A DNA stretch of 64,000 bases, from positions 1 to 64,000 of IMG/VR virus record IMGVR_UViG_2875455138_000005; one strand, given 5' to 3'. The translations under genes were made by a program, and so were the position numbers. The number at the start of each line of letters is the position of its first letter. Positions within the stretch are counted from its first letter, which is position 1. This DNA comes from an uncultured virus (IMG/VR IMGVR_UViG_2875455138_000005). Taxonomy: Duplodnaviria; Heunggongvirae; Uroviricota; Caudoviricetes. Positions 2,443 through 27,547 of this stretch are shown in pieces. Under the pieces are notes generated by a model, which was not told where the DNA came from, did not search any database, and saw nothing but the letters and a program-made list of their open reading frames with translations.

Positions 2443-3733
2443 CTTTGATACCCTCGGTTTCCCGATATTTTATTAGGGAATAGACCATATCATCATCTGT
2501 GCTAGACAGATGGTCAGCGCTTCATAATAAGGAATTTCACCTTATTATTACTCCATAAAGGATGGTCGTTGCACCTTCATTTACAAGTGCTTCCCAGCAT
2601 GATGTAAACGCTTGGCACAGGGTTTTCATATAATACATTCTACATTCATTTTACATTTTTATAGGTTCTTCCTTGTTTAATTCCATAGACAACATTGGGT
2701 TTTATGTTACACATTTTTGCAACATGGGGTGCTGATAACCCTTTTTTAAGAAGTTCTCTTATGCGAAATACTTCTTTTGGAGTAAGAGTGCTTTTCTTCT
2801 TGCTTTTGTATTTAAGAATAAAGTCGTCCCACCCAGTAACATGAATATGATTCCATACTTTACACTCTAATATTGATTTAACGATGGGGTAGGAAACACA
2901 CATTGACTTTGATACTTCGGACATCTTTTCTCCATTAATCAAACGAACTTTTATCTCGTATGCTTTCGTTTCATTTATTTTTGAGGATTTATTTTTTGAC
3001 CCTAAATGAGACTGACGCATCTTTAATCTAGATTCTGGCGAATGCCTTTTATTCATTCTAGATTGTAAAAGCTTTTCCTTATGCTGCGGAGAGAGCTTTC
3101 TGCCAATTCTCGCTTTACTCATTTTGGCTTTAGTCTCATCACTAAGCTTTCTTCCGGTGTTATTAATCCTATTCTTTTCCCCAATAATTCTTTTGGTGGA
3201 GTCAGACATCTTACAATTACTCTTGCCCTCTCCGCCGGTGGTCATGTTAAAGCCATTTAAATAGGCACCTAGTTCATTTATGTAGTGAGTTTCTAATTCG
3301 TTCATATCTGAGTTTGGATCAACTGTTTGCAATACATGAAATTGGAAATCGTTTTCTCCATATTTATTCCAGGTATTCTGCAAATGTCGATTACAGTGCG
3401 AATTGTTTTTCAGCTTCCAAGTGTGATGCCAGTAACGCTTAATAAATTTCATCTTAGTTTTCCCCACATATATTAAGCCGGTGCTTATCTGCTCAATCTT
3501 ATATATCCCACTCAAATATTTATGCTCATCCTCATTTATAAACTTCACTTTGTCACCCCCTTGTTTTAAATATCATTGTTCAAAAATGTAAAATGTATTA
3601 ATTAGAATTCCCCTGTTAGCACACTCATTGACGATCATTTCCTATCGCTACTTTTCGCTGAATGTACACCCTAGATTTCTAGGTTCACTGACTTTTCATC
3701 CGCATATCGCTATGCGACGCGACTATAAATTTA
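2443..3733 (-). ncRNA. Group I intron (IA-like) interrupting yonO, about 1291 nt
   Basis: 5' exon ends in U within P1 CGAUUA/UAGUCG (U-G wobble); P3 GUCAGUG/CGCUGAC; P/Q GCUAACAGGGG...AACCCUGUGCCAAG; P7 GACCA/UGGUC within GCAACGACCAUC and GAUAUGGUCUA; ends in G; removal restores the frame (~838 aa). Confidence 0.9.
2646..3548 (-). CDS. Intron-encoded GIY-YIG homing endonuclease with NUMOD3-like repeats
   Basis: SGIYKI...IYVGKT...RY..H motif; repeats KLSDETKAKMS, KLSPQHKEKL, HSPESRLKMRQSHLG. Confidence 0.92.
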   Translation of the reverse strand: MKFINEDEHKYLSGIYKIEQISTGLIYVGKTKMKFIKRYWHHTWKLKNNSHCNRHLQNTWNKYGENDFQFHVLQTVDPNSDMNELETHYINELGAYLNGFNMTTGGEGKSNCKMSDSTKRIIGEKNRINNTGRKLSDETKAKMSKARIGRKLSPQHKEKLLQSRMNKRHSPESRLKMRQSHLGSKNKSSKINETKAYEIKVRLINGEKMSEVSKSMCVSYPIVKSILECKVWNHIHVTGWDDFILKYKSKKKSTLTPKEVFRIRELLKKGLSAPHVAKMCNIKPNVVYGIKQGRTYKNVK

Positions 3734-24052: not shown

Positions 24053-24235
24053 CTAAATGCTCTTCTTCATACCACACCTACGACACTCACGTAAAAACAC
24101 ACCACTTTTCACTGAACTCTTGAACAAAGCGTAATCACAGTTGTCACAGCGTCCATATTTAACATCGGGATACTCCTTATAATCATACACAACTGTTACA
24201 TCGTAGCCATTCGTCTCAAAATCTTTCTTTTCCAT
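24053..24235 (-). CDS. Small Zn-ribbon protein
   Basis: CDNC...CRRC; GTAGGTG RBS. Confidence 0.65.
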   Translation of the reverse strand: MEKKDFETNGYDVTVVYDYKEYPDVKYGRCDNCDYALFKSSVKSGVFLRECRRCGMKKSI

Positions 24236-24786: not shown

Positions 24787-24918
24787 GTGTACTGGATTGA
24801 ATGGATTGAGGATGGAGAGAAAAAAAGCATTGTTGCGGATGGATGGATTGAATGGGCCACAATCCTGGAAGACCTTTATCAGCAGCGATTTGAATATGTT
24901 GAATGGAATACCTTGTGA
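24787..24918 (+). CDS. yopG: 43-aa Trp-rich protein (missing from ORF track)
   Basis: GAGGAG RBS; MYWIEWIEDGEKKSIVADGWIEWATILEDLYQQRFEYVEWNTL; synteny. Confidence 0.6.
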   Translation: MYWIEWIEDGEKKSIVADGWIEWATILEDLYQQRFEYVEWNTL

Positions 24919-24960
24919 ACGGATGAAATTAACTCGTATTCAAGAAAGGAAGGTTAGATT

Positions 24961-25167
24961 TTGATTGACTTTTTATATAATAATATTCAGTGGATTTTTA
25001 GCGGTGTCGGTCTACCTATTGTAGGTTGGATATGCTTAAAGTGGAAGAAAACAAAAAAGGAAGACATTCATGATACAAAATATAATCAACAAGGCGGGGA
25101 CAATTCAGTTAATATTCAAGGGTGTAATGTAGAAATAAATGATTTTAAAAACAAGGGTGATAAATAG
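24961..25167 (+). CDS. Small single-TM protein with C-terminal QQGGDNSVNIQG motif
   Basis: WIFSGVGLPIVGWICL TM helix, basic linker, N/Q/G-rich tail. Confidence 0.7.
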   Translation: MIDFLYNNIQWIFSGVGLPIVGWICLKWKKTKKEDIHDTKYNQQGGDNSVNIQGCNVEINDFKNKGDK

Positions 25168-26217
25168 ATGAAAAAGACTTGCTCGCAAAGTGGAGGAGAT
25201 CACTCCGTCAATATCCAAGGAGAGACTGTACATGTAACGGGGCTATCATATGGAGATGCAAAACAAATATGTAACGATATTTTCAAAGAAAATTTTTATA
25301 AGCTTTCTCAAGAAGCTAATAAGATTGCTACAGAAAGAGCAAATACTTTAATTGAAGGTTTTCTAGAACAATTTTCTAAGAATCCCAATTTACCTAATCG
25401 GTTTTCTGATCCTGACTTGCAATATATAATTTATGTAGCACAAAGGGATTTTGTAAGGTCTGGCGAAAAATATCTATACCAGATGTTAAAAGAATTATTA
25501 GTTGAACGGACTAAAGAAAAGGATAGATCGTTTAAACAGGTAGTTCTCAATGAAGCAATAGAAGTTTCTTCTAAGCTAAATACTGAACACATTAATTTAC
25601 TAAGTCTGCACTTCCTTTTATCTGAAGTAACTTTTCCGTGCCAAACAATAGGAGAATTAAATTGTTTGTTAAATAAATATGCAGTGCCGTTTCTGCCAAA
25701 AAAAATCCCTTCATTAAACCAGATGATGCATTTAGAGTATTGTAAATGCGAGAACTTAACAAAAGGTCAAAATGAGCATTTTTCTTATTTGATTCACATG
25801 GCATACGGTGGGATATTTCAAGCTGGTTTTGATCTTGAGCACTATCTTAAGACATTTCCTTATCTAGATTCAAATATCCTAAAAGAAATGGTTACGCCTC
25901 TTTCAGACGAAAATAATTTATATAAGTTCAATGTTCAGGGATTTTTTCATTTATTAGATAAAATTGAAATTTTGGGTTCAGTGTTTATTCAGCATCAAAG
26001 TAAGATTATTGATTTTTATAAAAACCATCTTAAATCAGAAAATGAAATAAGTTTGGCTATAAGCAGATATGAAAGTATCCGTAAAGTAAATGAAATATGG
26101 GACAGAACTACTCTTCCTGAGTTTAGAATGACCTCCGTTGGAAAGGTTATTGCTATTACTAATCTTAATCAAAATACAGATTTAGATATTAAATTAGAAG
26201 AAGCCTTAGCTAAATAA
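25168..26217 (+). CDS. Uncharacterised protein with N-terminal QSGGDHSVNIQG motif (resembles the LPO_1073/Vpar_1526 family)
   Basis: GLSY.DAKQI...F..NF..L..EA...A.ER...DPD.Q...L..LL.ER pattern recalled for that family. Confidence 0.6.
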   Translation: MKKTCSQSGGDHSVNIQGETVHVTGLSYGDAKQICNDIFKENFYKLSQEANKIATERANTLIEGFLEQFSKNPNLPNRFSDPDLQYIIYVAQRDFVRSGEKYLYQMLKELLVERTKEKDRSFKQVVLNEAIEVSSKLNTEHINLLSLHFLLSEVTFPCQTIGELNCLLNKYAVPFLPKKIPSLNQMMHLEYCKCENLTKGQNEHFSYLIHMAYGGIFQAGFDLEHYLKTFPYLDSNILKEMVTPLSDENNLYKFNVQGFFHLLDKIEILGSVFIQHQSKIIDFYKNHLKSENEISLAISRYESIRKVNEIWDRTTLPEFRMTSVGKVIAITNLNQNTDLDIKLEEALAK

Positions 26218-26401
26218 AATTACAATAATAAAAGACACAGTTGTGAAGAAAAATTGTGTCTTTATAAAATACGAATTTTAAACAGAGAAGGATTCCTTAA
26301 AAAATAATTAGAATAAAAATAAAATAAATACTTGTAATTCTGACAACTCTAATGTATATTATAAACAAGGGAACATTAGTTGGGAAGGGGTGGAGTAACC
26401 A

Positions 26402-27547
26402 ATGAACCTTAAGCAGATGATTAAGAATGAATGTGAAAAAGACAACCAGCTCGCAGCGAAACTCTCAAAAATAGCAGGGTACGAAAAGGTTAATGGCTTT
26501 TACAAATTCATCAACACCCCAGAGAAAGAAATGGACAACTTAGGCGGTTTAATTAATATTGTTAAAAGCTTGTTTCCTGATAATGAAAAGCAACTTTTGA
26601 GTGATTATTTCTTGTCATTGGATCCCAATAAGAAATGTGCTAGACAATCTGTTGAATATGCAGATTTAAATCAGTGGAATGCATTAACTGATAAAATAAT
26701 TTTAAATTTATGCAATTCAAAAAATGCGACAAGCAAAGAATGGGGTAAGACCTATAATATACATAGAAAGTTAACAGAAAACAAGATATCCTTAACTGAA
26801 GCAATCAGGGAAACTGGAAAATGCAAAACAGCAGAAATGATATTCTTCTCAAATGCAATGTTAATGTATGAATACCTTAAAATCGGTGAATTTGGATTAA
26901 TGAAAAGTACAGCAAAATTGCTGGATTTTCAAGAAATATCAGACGCTTACATAAAAGGCTTGTACACCTCCAGAGTAAGCTTGTTGAAAGCTAATATAAG
27001 CTTCAATGAGAACAATTTAATTGAAGCAAGAAAATATTGTTTATATGCCACTGAAACTACAAACGTGGACAGGATTTGTTTTTTTGCATATTTAACAATC
27101 GGAAATTCTTTTATATTCGAAAATTTTGAAGAGGCTAAGCGGTCTTATATTAATGGTGCTAAGTATGCAAGTAACACAATTCACAAAGAGATGTTAGAAG
27201 GAGCATTATGTTTTCTTGCAAGCTTTTGGGACAAAGAGAATTTTTGGGTGAATTATGAATCACAGAATACTAAATACTTGCAATTGAGGGCATACCATTA
27301 TATACGAAAAGGTGAAGTTGATAAAGCAAATGATATTTTAAATGAGTTATCAATAAGAGAACAAGATGAGAATGAGATGGGATTTTATTTTTATTATAGA
27401 GGTTTAATATCTGTAGATAAATCTGATTTTTATAAATCTATACGCTGTTTCAAAAAATCAGATGACAAATATTCAGTTCAACTGCCCTTGATTGAACTTA
27501 AAAAAATGGGCGCGGACATAGAACTGTTAAGTCTTATTTCAATTTAG
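26402..27547 (+). CDS. aimR: Arbitrium peptide receptor AimR
   Basis: MNLKQMIKNECEKDNQLAAKLSKIAGY N-terminal HTH plus TPR region; followed by an aimP-like gene. Confidence 0.95.
   Translation: MNLKQMIKNECEKDNQLAAKLSKIAGYEKVNGFYKFINTPEKEMDNLGGLINIVKSLFPDNEKQLLSDYFLSLDPNKKCARQSVEYADLNQWNALTDKIILNLCNSKNATSKEWGKTYNIHRKLTENKISLTEAIRETGKCKTAEMIFFSNAMLMYEYLKIGEFGLMKSTAKLLDFQEISDAYIKGLYTSRVSLLKANISFNENNLIEARKYCLYATETTNVDRICFFAYLTIGNSFIFENFEEAKRSYINGAKYASNTIHKEMLEGALCFLASFWDKENFWVNYESQNTKYLQLRAYHYIRKGEVDKANDILNELSIREQDENEMGFYFYYRGLISVDKSDFYKSIRCFKKSDDKYSVQLPLIELKKMGADIELLSLISI

Follow-up and report, generated by a model that had tools for sequence, protein, structure and literature searches.

The question raised by this locus is whether two adjacent genes upstream of an arbitrium receptor gene, one for a small membrane protein (gene A) and one for a large partner (gene B), form a defence pair coupled by a shared terminal motif. 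Both genes are located on a stretch of 64,000 nucleotides from an uncultured virus, here called the window. A sequence-only reading had noticed a motif common to the C-terminus of A and the N-terminus of B and had proposed an amyloid-signalling-like pair, in which B senses a trigger such as a superinfecting phage and A damages the membrane. The features of the locus are compiled in Table 1. Our reading is that the pair may be a BASS-like, motif-coupled sensor/membrane-effector module of an SPbeta-like prophage working as a triggered amyloid-type switch; we advance it tentatively, at slightly less than an even chance.

Table 1. Features of the A/B locus and its surroundings (positions in the window)
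Feature	Position	Strand	Basis
Gene A, small membrane protein, 68 aa	24961-25167	+	ORF list; TTG start, stop TAG 25165-25167
TM core of A, hydrophobic (residues 11-28, WIFSGVGLPIVGWICLKW), with a K-rich stretch after it	24991-25044	+	Helix in AF2 model
First motif copy, in the C-terminal tail of A (residues 42-59, NQQGGDNSVNIQGCNVEI)	25084-25137	+	Alignment to B 6-23
Junction, TAG of A then directly ATG of B in the same frame	25165-25170	+	Sequence
Gene B, LPO_1073/Vpar_1526-family protein, 349 aa	25168-26217	+	NF045477, PF28206
Second motif copy, at the N-terminus of B (residues 6-23, SQSGGDHSVNIQGETVHV)	25183-25236	+	Alignment to A 42-59
Globular LPO_1073/Vpar_1526 domain of B, residues 25-344	25240-26199	+	Extent of NCBIfam match
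Cargo slot from the yopG-like gene to the aimR upstream region, filled by A and B only	24909-26263	.	Contigs of a relative (where matching breaks off)
12-bp hairpin downstream of gene B, at the right-hand end of the slot	26231-26263	+	RNA fold
aimR, arbitrium receptor (context)	26402-27547	+	PF22871, E 7e-93; NF038310, E 3.8e-74

The best local alignment of A with the whole of B paired the two motif copies listed in Table 1 (11/18 residues identical, score 57), and no similarity was detected between A and any part of B beyond the motif; position, letters and exclusiveness of the match were thus as the sequence-only reading had described them. None of 5000 shuffles of A reached a score of 57. 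The best shuffle scored 56, close to the real value, and the window alone therefore provides moderate support only. A six-frame scan of the 64-kb window with the motif pattern detected these two sites and no others. The motif, of about 20 residues, has a high content of Q, N and G and reads QxQxxGxxSxN-[ILY]-Q-[AGS]-G-x-[DN]-[IV]-x-[IV]; according to the position table, alternating hydrophobic residues stand beside the conserved N, Q and G. In the family alignment G46, S49, N51 and Q53 of the A tail are invariant, and the motif is kept at the N-terminus of members of the B family. AF2 modelled the motif as unstructured in both monomers, next to confident helices. The model of A consists of a helix at residues 2-33 (pLDDT 81-85) and a coil at residues 34-68 (pLDDT about 50-58), and that of B is nearly all alpha-helical (pLDDT 91.4, pTM 0.84) with a coil at residues 1-27 (pLDDT 61-65).

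Protein A has one TM helix. Residues W11, F13, S14 and G15 were invariant in an alignment of 20 class-1 small proteins, and a profile built from 20 A-like proteins retrieved 2549 cluster representatives at E ≤ 1e-3, mostly of 55-75 aa. Only about 33 residues with one helix precede the tail; a Bell/HeLo-like helical domain of about 100 aa is absent. Searches of small proteins against Pfam (20 at E ≤ 10, 37 at E ≤ 1) revealed neither RHIM nor any other meaningful match, and no Pfam family scored above its cut-off among these 57 proteins. The PADLOC model PDC-M43A matched the N-terminal TM module of A (residues 3-59, E 1.5e-6).

Protein B matched NF045477 with an E-value of 3.7e-65 and 220.1 bits (cut-off 45), its globular domain covering profile positions 1-254 of 257, and the precomputed annotation assigned it to PF28206 (Vpar_1526). 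All 30 matches of an Atlas feature search with B carried PF28206, only the same family being returned; homologues measure 285-364 aa. Foldseek of the B model against the PDB gave nothing at E ≤ 1e-3; VIA-align against 48,161 chains peaked at Z 8.0, for designed helical bundles, which is within the chance range for helical proteins. Since these structure searches yielded neither a recognisable fold nor a catalytic motif for the large domain, the label "sensor" for B is a guess. Pfam returned TAFH and Vesiculo_matrix only, both sub-threshold. As the sequence-only reading had noted, B has no NLR P-loop: a Walker A pattern is absent, there is no NLR (NB-ARC/NACHT) domain, and LPO_1073/Vpar_1526 is the sole family match, which rules out that A and B form an NLR pair. 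With PADLOC-DB 2.0.0 at E ≤ 0.001 no system model matched any of seven large family members (0/7), including the divergent L078 and the short L079; the large protein of L055 gave a weak partial match to PDC-S47 (E 0.0047). Our literature search on the LPO_1073/Vpar_1526 family or the small/large pairing found nothing beyond one proteomics paper (PMC5491611).

The same-frame arrangement of A and B had not been noted in the sequence-only reading. If A and B were one gene, interrupted by an in-frame TAG or read through it, the product would be one TM protein containing a tandem repeat in its interior; the shared frame, the TAG as the only codon in between and the ATG directly after it fit such a gene. 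Among the 57 pairs with both starts defined, in contrast, only two are in frame (the window and L041) and the others overlap out of frame. Furthermore, a search for longer homologues found no B homologue of 612-2000 aa, which is weak evidence, the TAG is kept in two identical IMG/VR copies, and B has its own ATG with a purine-rich stretch upstream. Frames in other pairs, homologue lengths and the kept TAG rule out a split gene or TAG read-through, and we regard a single gene as exceedingly improbable. Homologues in the form of single fused ORFs with a repeat, which the sequence-only reading had named as an observation that would speak against a pair, were thus not found.

Co-occurrence and covariation of the two genes, proposed earlier as checks on the pair, were analyzed in 72 non-identical related loci from IMG/VR contigs and 63 species genomes, the record titles of the latter spanning more than 10 phyla. 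Two loci had no upstream DNA, leaving 70 testable ones. A small protein with 1-2 TM helices and a C-terminal tail like the N-terminus of its own partner was present in 68/70 loci, and the expected layout is thereby borne out; the replication rules out chance or low-complexity likeness. The small partners measure 56-113 aa, and in 67 of the 68 pairs the small gene lies upstream of the large one, in most cases overlapping its start by 4-14 nt out of frame. On both sides the consensus contains Q at -10 (65/67 and 65/67), G at -7 (48/67 and 46/67), S at -4 (51/67 and 58/67), N at -2 (41/67 and 42/67) and Q at 0 (66/67 and 67/67).

The motifs of cognate partners also covaried, as had been predicted for a coupled pair. 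The mean motif score was 48.5 for cognate and 35.7 for non-cognate combinations, and 0/2000 permutations reached the cognate value. Within motif classes, the counts were 7/5000 permutations for the AIQ class (n = 25) and 0/5000 for the NxQ class (n = 41). The same codon was used at 274 of 658 identical aligned residues (42%), as compared to 45% expected from codon usage. There is no excess of shared codons, and selection hence operates at the level of the protein; this codon analysis rules out that the likeness stems from recent DNA duplication or gene conversion.

The motif is kept across small proteins whose membrane architectures, three or more in number, are unrelated; their TM parts are thus interchangeable, which we count in favour of the switch. 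Such freedom is also expected of a mere anchor, and the two motif copies might accordingly form a stable, small beta structure which permanently tethers the LPO_1073 protein to the membrane via A. Activity would then reside in the LPO_1073 domain, which might, for instance, keep out or detect incoming phage DNA at the membrane, and neither templating nor amyloid would be involved. At one of the two non-pair loci (L032, from a metagenome bin) the large domain is fused directly to a TM hairpin and only the second half of the motif is kept. Additionally, Vpar_1526, the namesake of the family, was detected in uninfected Veillonella parvula, in the whole-cell, outer-membrane and surface fractions (PMC5491611, Table 1). 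The L032 fusion and the occurrence of Vpar_1526 in membrane-enriched fractions are accounted for at least as well by a permanent tether as by a triggered switch. The overlap of the genes suggests co-translation and a fixed stoichiometry, and in longer proteins the same TM-plus-motif segment precedes other soluble domains (e.g. P0122, TPR repeats), both of which would suit an anchor. A constitutive tether thus explains much of the evidence that we cite for the switch.

Several observations argue against a tether nevertheless. The interface of a heterodimer needs complementarity, yet it is the sequence likeness itself that is conserved and covaries. L032 is one of 70 loci and could be a deletion product, and proteome fractions are prone to carry-over. 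The second non-pair locus, L033, is a fusion of the LPO_1073 domain to an HNH endonuclease without a membrane part (E 1e-19 to 3e-19; PDC-M68A, 8.8e-27). HNH endonucleases of this type serve as CBASS effectors, and in the fusion the LPO_1073 domain takes the place that a regulatory domain would occupy. On balance, we consider the tether rather unlikely, albeit a reading to be reckoned with.

The fusion at L033 bears equally on the possibility that A is a toxin which self-assembles via its tail and that B caps this tail with its matching N-terminal motif; A would be freed when B is lost, titrated or modified during infection or upon loss of the prophage. Small-TM toxin pairs are common on mobile elements. 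Layout, covariation and co-expression would be the same as for the switch, and the small protein of L058 carries two tandem copies of the motif, the sole such effector-side repeat, which would favour self-assembly. In the HNH fusion, in contrast, LPO_1073 is in cis with the effector, and this agrees better with a domain that activates or gates than with an antidote to be titrated. The antidote would, moreover, be five times larger than the toxin, highly conserved and of complex fold. We therefore judge a toxin with a capping partner to be improbable.

In a further locus (L088), the same N-terminal TM module as in A was found paired with a retron NDT effector via a different shared tail motif.

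The genomic surroundings were examined for the role of the pair. The claims that it sits directly upstream of aimR and in a variable slot were both corroborated: aimR was identified by two profiles (Table 1), and the interval between the yopG homologue and aimR holds other genes in SPbeta (yopH/I/J), phi3T (genes 86-88) and BUCT082 (two genes). In contigs of a relative, matching ends at position 24908 and restarts at 26264/26265, at the edges of the slot. Contigs from RNA libraries (X3) contained the conserved flanks only and derive from a relative with other cargo. Fragments of the A/B pair were present in library X1, which is probably a DNA library. The hairpin at the right edge has a folding energy of -13.4 kcal/mol (z -4.8; 0/200 shuffles as stable); a simple terminator scan called no terminator, this hairpin included. 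A promoter scan gave 11 sites as compared to 11.5 expected.

In E. coli the pair is located between gpA and gpQ of P2-like prophages, adjoining the PADLOC systems Hp1, Hp2 and Hp3. According to the parts of the publication used here, this position is a defence hotspot and the E. coli pair is entered in Table S5A as "hypothetical" (PMC9122126). Its occurrence is sporadic, 6-7 of 5426 genomes. Among the nearest neighbours, 29/121 were integrases, transposases or defence/TA-type genes, distributed over 26/70 loci (a raw count from Pfam names, with no background). The module sits in prophage cargo slots, and its putative role in defence is suggested by this genomic context.

A function for the phage itself would be an obvious alternative, given that the pair adjoins aimR in the window: A and B could be a lysis-timing or membrane-remodelling pair of the holin/antiholin kind, or might assist lysogeny as an accessory to the arbitrium region. 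Phage genes surround the pair in three related IMG/VR contigs (L079-L081), and an ORF downstream of it in L080 resembles a cell-wall amidase by eye; a few small proteins gave weak, sub-threshold holin matches (E 0.026-0.53). Most of the 63 species-genome loci, in contrast, adjoin chromosomal genes, integrases, TA modules or defence genes rather than phage structural genes, and the sporadic occurrence in E. coli likewise speaks against a phage function. Searches by tblastn with B gave one weak match in 50,697 phage records and, among plasmids, two E. coli records, both with P2-type phage genes. None of 29 isolated Bacillus phage records sharing the flanks was among the matches to B. The variability of the slot and the absence from these 29 records indicate that the pair is dispensable for the phage, and a phage-own function appears quite improbable to us. 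Instead, we propose, with the reserve that applies to the switch as a whole, that A and B together form an accessory module of two genes that is complete in itself and travels as cargo of the SPbeta-like prophage.

The switch reading itself can be outlined as follows. A would be a small membrane protein with a cytoplasmic tail ending in the motif, and B a cytoplasmic protein with a flexible N-terminal motif ahead of an alpha-helical domain of about 320 residues. We infer that the two motif copies would associate homotypically through in-register beta stacking, in the manner of BASS, and that B would act as sensor or regulator and A as membrane effector. A trigger, e.g. phage infection, would cause B to present its motif in a beta form, which would recruit and template the tails of A in an amyloid-type assembly. 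As a consequence, the TM helices of A would cluster, the membrane would be damaged and the infection aborted, which would make the pair an anti-phage system. Several points count against this outline: B lacks an NTPase that would explain triggered oligomerisation, the effector A lacks a globular domain of the Bell/HeLo type, the strict RHIM/PP/BASS3 core was found in neither tails nor N-termini (see below), and PADLOC contains no model for the large protein.

Bacterial amyloid signalling has so far been tied to Bell/NLR pairs of multicellular bacteria and to the single tested Bab/Agp system of E. coli. If the switch exists, A/B would extend the principle to the simplest conceivable effector, a TM helix plus a tag, and the sensor would belong to a large family without assigned function that NCBI names "LPO_1073/Vpar_1526 family protein". 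A broader proposal, which we regard as doubtful, is that such pairs represent a third class of amyloid-type signalling in bacteria, and a very widespread one, with bare TM-peptide effectors, a non-NTPase Vpar_1526/LPO_1073 sensor and a new motif family; this class would then occur in unicellular bacteria of more than 10 phyla and on phages. The pairing with the retron NDT effector at L088 suggests that matching terminal tags may be a general plug-and-socket wiring which connects membrane effectors to many immune sensors. At stake is whether templating by matching tags is a general wiring principle of prokaryotic immunity. Two settings of the module are highly tractable: an SPbeta-like Bacillus prophage, in which the arbitrium switch is its neighbour, and the P2 defence hotspot in E. 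coli. Even a mere tether would provide an orphan family with a partner and a location, and would account for the small-protein family of 2549 cluster representatives.

Comparison with known systems places A/B outside the catalogued ones: PADLOC-DB 2.0.0 contains no model for it, and a phenotype was not found in print. Membership in PDC-M43 is ruled out. A covers only positions 2-57 of the 203 of the PDC-M43A profile and B has no PADLOC match, whereas true PDC-M43A proteins (L084, L085) have about 200 aa, an extra domain and a HATPase_c partner, PDC-M43B.

The following comparisons draw on selected parts of the publications cited. Amyloid signalling motifs are described as characterised by conserved N, Q and G, and G-(I,V)-Q-(I,V)-G is the core that RHIM, fungal PP and BASS3 share (PMC7885112). 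The A/B motif resembles them in its central core of a hydrophobic residue, Q, a small residue and G, and in the conserved N and G on its flanks. The strict core G-[IV]-Q-[IV]-G was found in 0/68 tails and 0/68 N-termini; relaxed forms occurred in the tails, namely [ILVYFM]-Q-[AVISG]-G in 54/68, G-[ILV]-Q-A-G in 20/68 and [IV]-Q-[IV]-G in 13/68. The initial description of an amyloid-signalling-like pair stands in part, being supported by layout, covariation, selection at the protein level, richness in Q, N and G and the modelled disorder of both motif copies, but not by a strict RHIM-like core.

The logic proposed for A/B is that of HET-S/NWD2 of Podospora, in which the N-terminal motif of a receptor templates the C-terminal motif of a neighbouring membrane-targeting effector. 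That system differs in being eukaryotic and in having a HeLo domain, a NACHT receptor and a 21-residue, two-repeat solenoid motif. In the Bell/NLR pairs of BASS1-10 (10.1101/2020.01.06.895854), the C-terminal motif of the effector equals the N-terminal motif of the receptor, as in A/B; the genes are likewise collinear with an overlap of a few bases, and effector-side pseudo-repeats are shared as well (here in L058 only). Bell/NLR pairs are defined by Bell and NB-ARC/NACHT domains, neither of which the A/B module has, and they are reported in the parts used here to be specific to multicellular bacteria, whereas unicellular bacteria from many phyla, as well as phages, carry the A/B module.

A further close likeness in layout is to Bab/Agp (BASS11) of E. 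coli ECOR25, described as a non-NLR sensor with a small membrane-targeting protein, a 20-residue amyloid motif and abortive infection (10.1101/2024.11.07.622273). As in A/B, the genes are adjacent and collinear, the small protein has an N-terminal hydrophobic helix and a C-terminal motif of about 20 residues, the large non-NLR partner carries the motif at its N-terminus, and the pair occupies a prophage defence hotspot. The effector domain is of the helical Bell type in Bab/Agp, as opposed to a bare peptide with 1-2 TM helices and a disordered tail in A/B. The likeness concerns gene layout, and a function like that of Bab/Agp would be putative for A/B. Within the parts of that report used here, Bab/Agp nevertheless provides a published precedent for the atypical, non-NLR sensor that the sequence-only reading had postulated for B.

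Gene A, the small membrane protein gene of the window, encodes a C-terminal end ...YNQQGGDNSVNIQGCNVEINDFKNKGDK, and the protein of its neighbour B starts with MKKTCSQSGGDHSVNIQGETVHVTGLSY.... The sequence-only reading had taken these ends for the common motif of an amyloid-signalling-like defence pair; indeed, the top local alignment of A with the whole of B consisted of exactly these two segments, which agree at 11 of 18 positions. The alignment score of 57 was attained by none of 5000 shuffles of A; since the best shuffle reached 56, the motif likeness is only moderately convincing when judged from the window alone. A six-frame pattern scan revealed no third occurrence of the motif pattern in the window. 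The reading frames of A and B coincide with only TAG and then ATG between them (25165-25170), a feature absent from the sequence-only reading.

Positions of the features in the window and in related loci (L-numbers)
Feature	Location	Strand	Description
ORF A	window 24961-25167	+	TTG start, 68 aa
ORF B	window 25168-26217	+	349 aa
Stable hairpin	window 26231-26263		12 bp, -13.4 kcal/mol, z -4.8; ends at right edge of slot
CxxC ORF	window 24053-24235	-	60 aa, two CxxC pairs (zinc-ribbon-like)
CxxC...CxxC ORFs	L079-L081, about 3228-3424		64-65 aa
E. coli pair	L089:3725-4837; L090:7001-8113		81-aa two-TM motif protein and 285-aa LPO_1073 protein
Hairpin fusion	L032:2303-3508		two-TM hairpin and LPO_1073 domain
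HNH fusion	L033:347-1789		HNH endonuclease N-terminal to LPO_1073 domain
Divergent large partner	L078:3670-4779		370 aa
Tandem-motif small partner	L058:2161-2499		actinobacterial
Retron locus	L088:3489-5814		65-aa protein and type II-A retron (IMG/VR contig)

Relatives of B were collected from IMG/VR (10 loci, two of them identical to the window) and from one genome per species (63 loci). By record titles, the latter belong to Bacillota, Bacteroidota, Pseudomonadota, Actinomycetota, Acidobacteriota, Cyanobacteria, Verrucomicrobiota, Planctomycetota, Nitrospirota, Chloroflexota, and others. From each large protein, the 24-residue segment that precedes the conserved GLSY anchor was aligned with every six-frame ORF within 1.2 kb. 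Both partners were found together in 68 of 72 non-identical loci, the top match lying in the last ≤25 residues of a plus-strand ORF that contains a hydrophobic stretch; of the four loci without such a match, L009 and L042 have no upstream DNA. In 67 loci the small gene is located upstream of the large one, whereas L010 has it downstream. Start codons of small genes were picked by rule, leaving ten without an assigned start; in pairs with both starts defined, the usual arrangement is an overlap of the small gene with the start of the large one by 4, 8, 11 or 14 nt. Only 2 of 57 pairs (L041 and the window) are in frame, and longer homologues were not found; therefore, a single broken or read-through gene was ruled out. 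The fused single ORFs with an internal repeat, named beforehand as evidence against a pair, did not appear among the homologues.

Counted from the invariant Q (position 0), the consensus common to both sides is Q(-12) x Q(-10) x x G(-7) x x S(-4) x N(-2) [ILY] Q(0) [AGS] G x [DN] [IV] x [IV]. Among 67 large and 67 small proteins, respectively, Q at -10 is present in 65 and 65, G at -7 in 48 and 46, S at -4 in 51 and 58, N at -2 in 41 and 42, and Q at 0 in 66 and 67. Two main flavours occur, ...S-T-N-[IL]-Q... and ...[AG]-I-Q-A-G-G..., and partners have the same flavour. The motif covariation expected for such a pair was observed: the motif score was 48.5 for cognate and 35.7 for non-cognate pairs (0/2000 permutations), and the cognate excess persisted inside each flavour (7/5000, n=25; 0/5000, n=41), relatedness among loci being ignored in all these permutations. 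The likeness across the two paralogous segments is not a product of the shared descent of the loci alone. Identical aligned residues (658) use the same codon in 42% of cases as compared to 45% expected from codon usage; in the window, 4 codons are shared among 11 identical residues. Hence, recent duplication or gene conversion was ruled out as the source of the likeness, which selection maintains at the peptide level.

No Pfam or NCBIfam family was found for A. Its model consists of a single helix (residues 2-33, pLDDT 81-85) followed by low-confidence coil containing the motif. Because lysines come after the hydrophobic core, the positive-inside rule predicts a cytoplasmic tail. The small proteins comprise at least three unrelated membrane designs with the motif kept, namely a single TM after W-I-x-x-N-K-E-W-x-F-S-G as in the window, a two-TM hairpin with a P-G-F-E-P-like turn, and an actinobacterial W-x-W-P-G type; the membrane part is thus interchangeable. 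Out of 1.84 billion cluster representatives, the profile of the first design picked up 2549 at a threshold of E≤1e-3, mostly of 55-75 aa, and 586 at E≤1e-10. A weak match of A to PADLOC PDC-M43A (E 1.5e-6) spans the TM module only; genuine PDC-M43A proteins are ~200 aa long and partnered with a HATPase_c protein (L084, L085), and assignment of the pair to PDC-M43 was ruled out.

The TM-plus-motif segment is reused, with the motif internal rather than terminal, in longer proteins from the profile search: as tandem copies in P0007 and P0008, before TPR repeats in P0122, and before unassigned domains in P0076 and P0152. Furthermore, the retron locus L088 (NDT_II-A E 2.2e-68; RT_II-A E 1.7e-186) carries just upstream a 65-aa protein with an A-type N-terminal TM module, and its tail (..FSIGSNNKTKNTQ..) has another short motif in common with the NDT N-terminus (..NIIGSNNETKVNQ..). 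These two proteins make up a second kind of 'matching tag' pair.

Protein B belongs to the LPO_1073/Vpar_1526 family (NCBIfam NF045477 over residues 25-344, E 3.7e-65, 220 bits with the cut-off at 45; also precomputed Pfam PF28206 Vpar_1526), which comes without assigned function. No Walker A motif was found in B, in agreement with the P-loop-free sensor proposed before. An AlphaFold2 model built with 71 family sequences was confident (pLDDT 91.4, pTM 0.84); residues 28-348 are nearly all helix, and residues 1-27, including the motif, are coil at pLDDT 61-65. Foldseek revealed nothing at E≤1e-3 among solved structures, and the top hits of a full VIA-align pass (Z 8.0) were designed helical bundles, a score in the range that the tool itself gives as noise for helical proteins; the predicted fold has no counterpart among solved structures. 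In L078, a small TM-plus-motif protein is partnered by a 370-aa protein with neither Pfam nor PADLOC match, which profile comparison identifies as LPO_1073-like and divergent (probability 99.5%, E 8.5e-23).

The anatomy of A and B fits the amyloid signalling layout, which is described for Bell/NLR pairs (10.1101/2020.01.06.895854) and works with a non-NLR sensor in the E. coli abortive-infection system Bab/Agp (10.1101/2024.11.07.622273). In-register parallel stacking with N/Q ladders would select for alike rather than complementary tags, and likeness is what is conserved here; the two tags may stack in this way, and the G-rich motif centre fits a strand-turn-strand arch. Each tag is predicted to be unstructured on its own. 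Based on layout, tag likeness, G-rich centre, and predicted disorder, we tentatively favour, at somewhat short of an even chance, a motif-coupled pair acting in abortive infection, with B as putative sensor and A as putative membrane effector. An inverse toxin/cap logic for these two proteins is improbable.

Two natural fusions bear on the role of the LPO_1073 domain. In L032 the TM hairpin is joined straight to it, the first half of the motif being missing and the second half left; in L033 the HNH part matches PADLOC PDC-M68A (8.8e-27) and CBASS-type SAVED-HNH and endonuclease effectors (1e-19, 3e-19). Hence, a membrane element or a nuclease can be linked covalently to the domain, as expected if the domain had a regulatory or sensory role and its effectors could be exchanged, and the motif pair looks like a non-covalent version of this link. 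The main rival, that A is a permanent membrane tether for B, is rather unlikely. In its favour, any TM design will serve, the L032 fusion exists, and Table 1 of PMC5491611 lists Vpar_1526, which we assume to be the family's namesake, in membrane-enriched fractions of uninfected Veillonella.

The window pair occupies the space from yopE/F/G homologues to aimR. That this slot is variable, as already proposed, was confirmed by yopH/I/J in SPbeta, three other genes in phi3T, and two in BUCT082. Contigs of a relative (RNA library) match the window up to 24908 and again from 26264/26265, and this break, the cargo slot, brackets exactly genes A and B plus the 12-bp hairpin. Matches of B include none of 29 Bacillus phage records with the same flanks, and tblastn with B gave one weak match in 50,697 phage records. 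A phage-own function of the pair is very improbable. The CxxC ORF of the window lies on the strand opposite to the yopE homologue and upstream of it; in the three Clostridia-like viral loci, such an ORF is located directly upstream of the small TM gene, which may be a coincidence. The E. coli pair, found in 6-7 of 5426 complete genomes, sits between replication endonuclease gpA and portal gpQ of P2-like prophages and is adjoined by PADLOC Hp1/Hp2/Hp3. This locus is given as a hotspot of anti-phage systems by Rousset et al. (PMC9122126), whose Table S5A enters the pair 14 times with the label 'hypothetical' only. The nearest ORFs of at least 110 aa (121 in 70 loci) were classified by our reading of Pfam names; 12 are integrases, transposases, reverse transcriptase or replication-associated (Rep) protein, and 17 are defence/TA types (PIN, TIR, OLD-type ATPase, type I R-M, HEPN, SIR2, HipA, Fic, AbiEii-like ATPases). 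Together they occur in 26 of 70 loci, a raw count that is indicative only.

In its strict form, G-[IV]-Q-[IV]-G, the RHIM/PP/BASS3 core was present in 0 of 68 small-protein tails and 0 of 68 large-protein N-termini; many of the tails have relaxed forms. The small partner of L058 contains two motif copies in tandem (..SHTNFQAGGANSRNYQASGD..), reminiscent of the pseudo-repeats reported on the effector side of BASS1/6 and HET-s. No model of PADLOC 2.0.0 covers the large protein, and full-text searches revealed no paper on the family or its pairing with a small protein. The A/B pair would work like a pair with bacterial amyloid signalling sequences (BASS) but, compared by domains, lacks two features that define the described families, namely an effector domain of the Bell type and a receptor of the NLR or TGP type.
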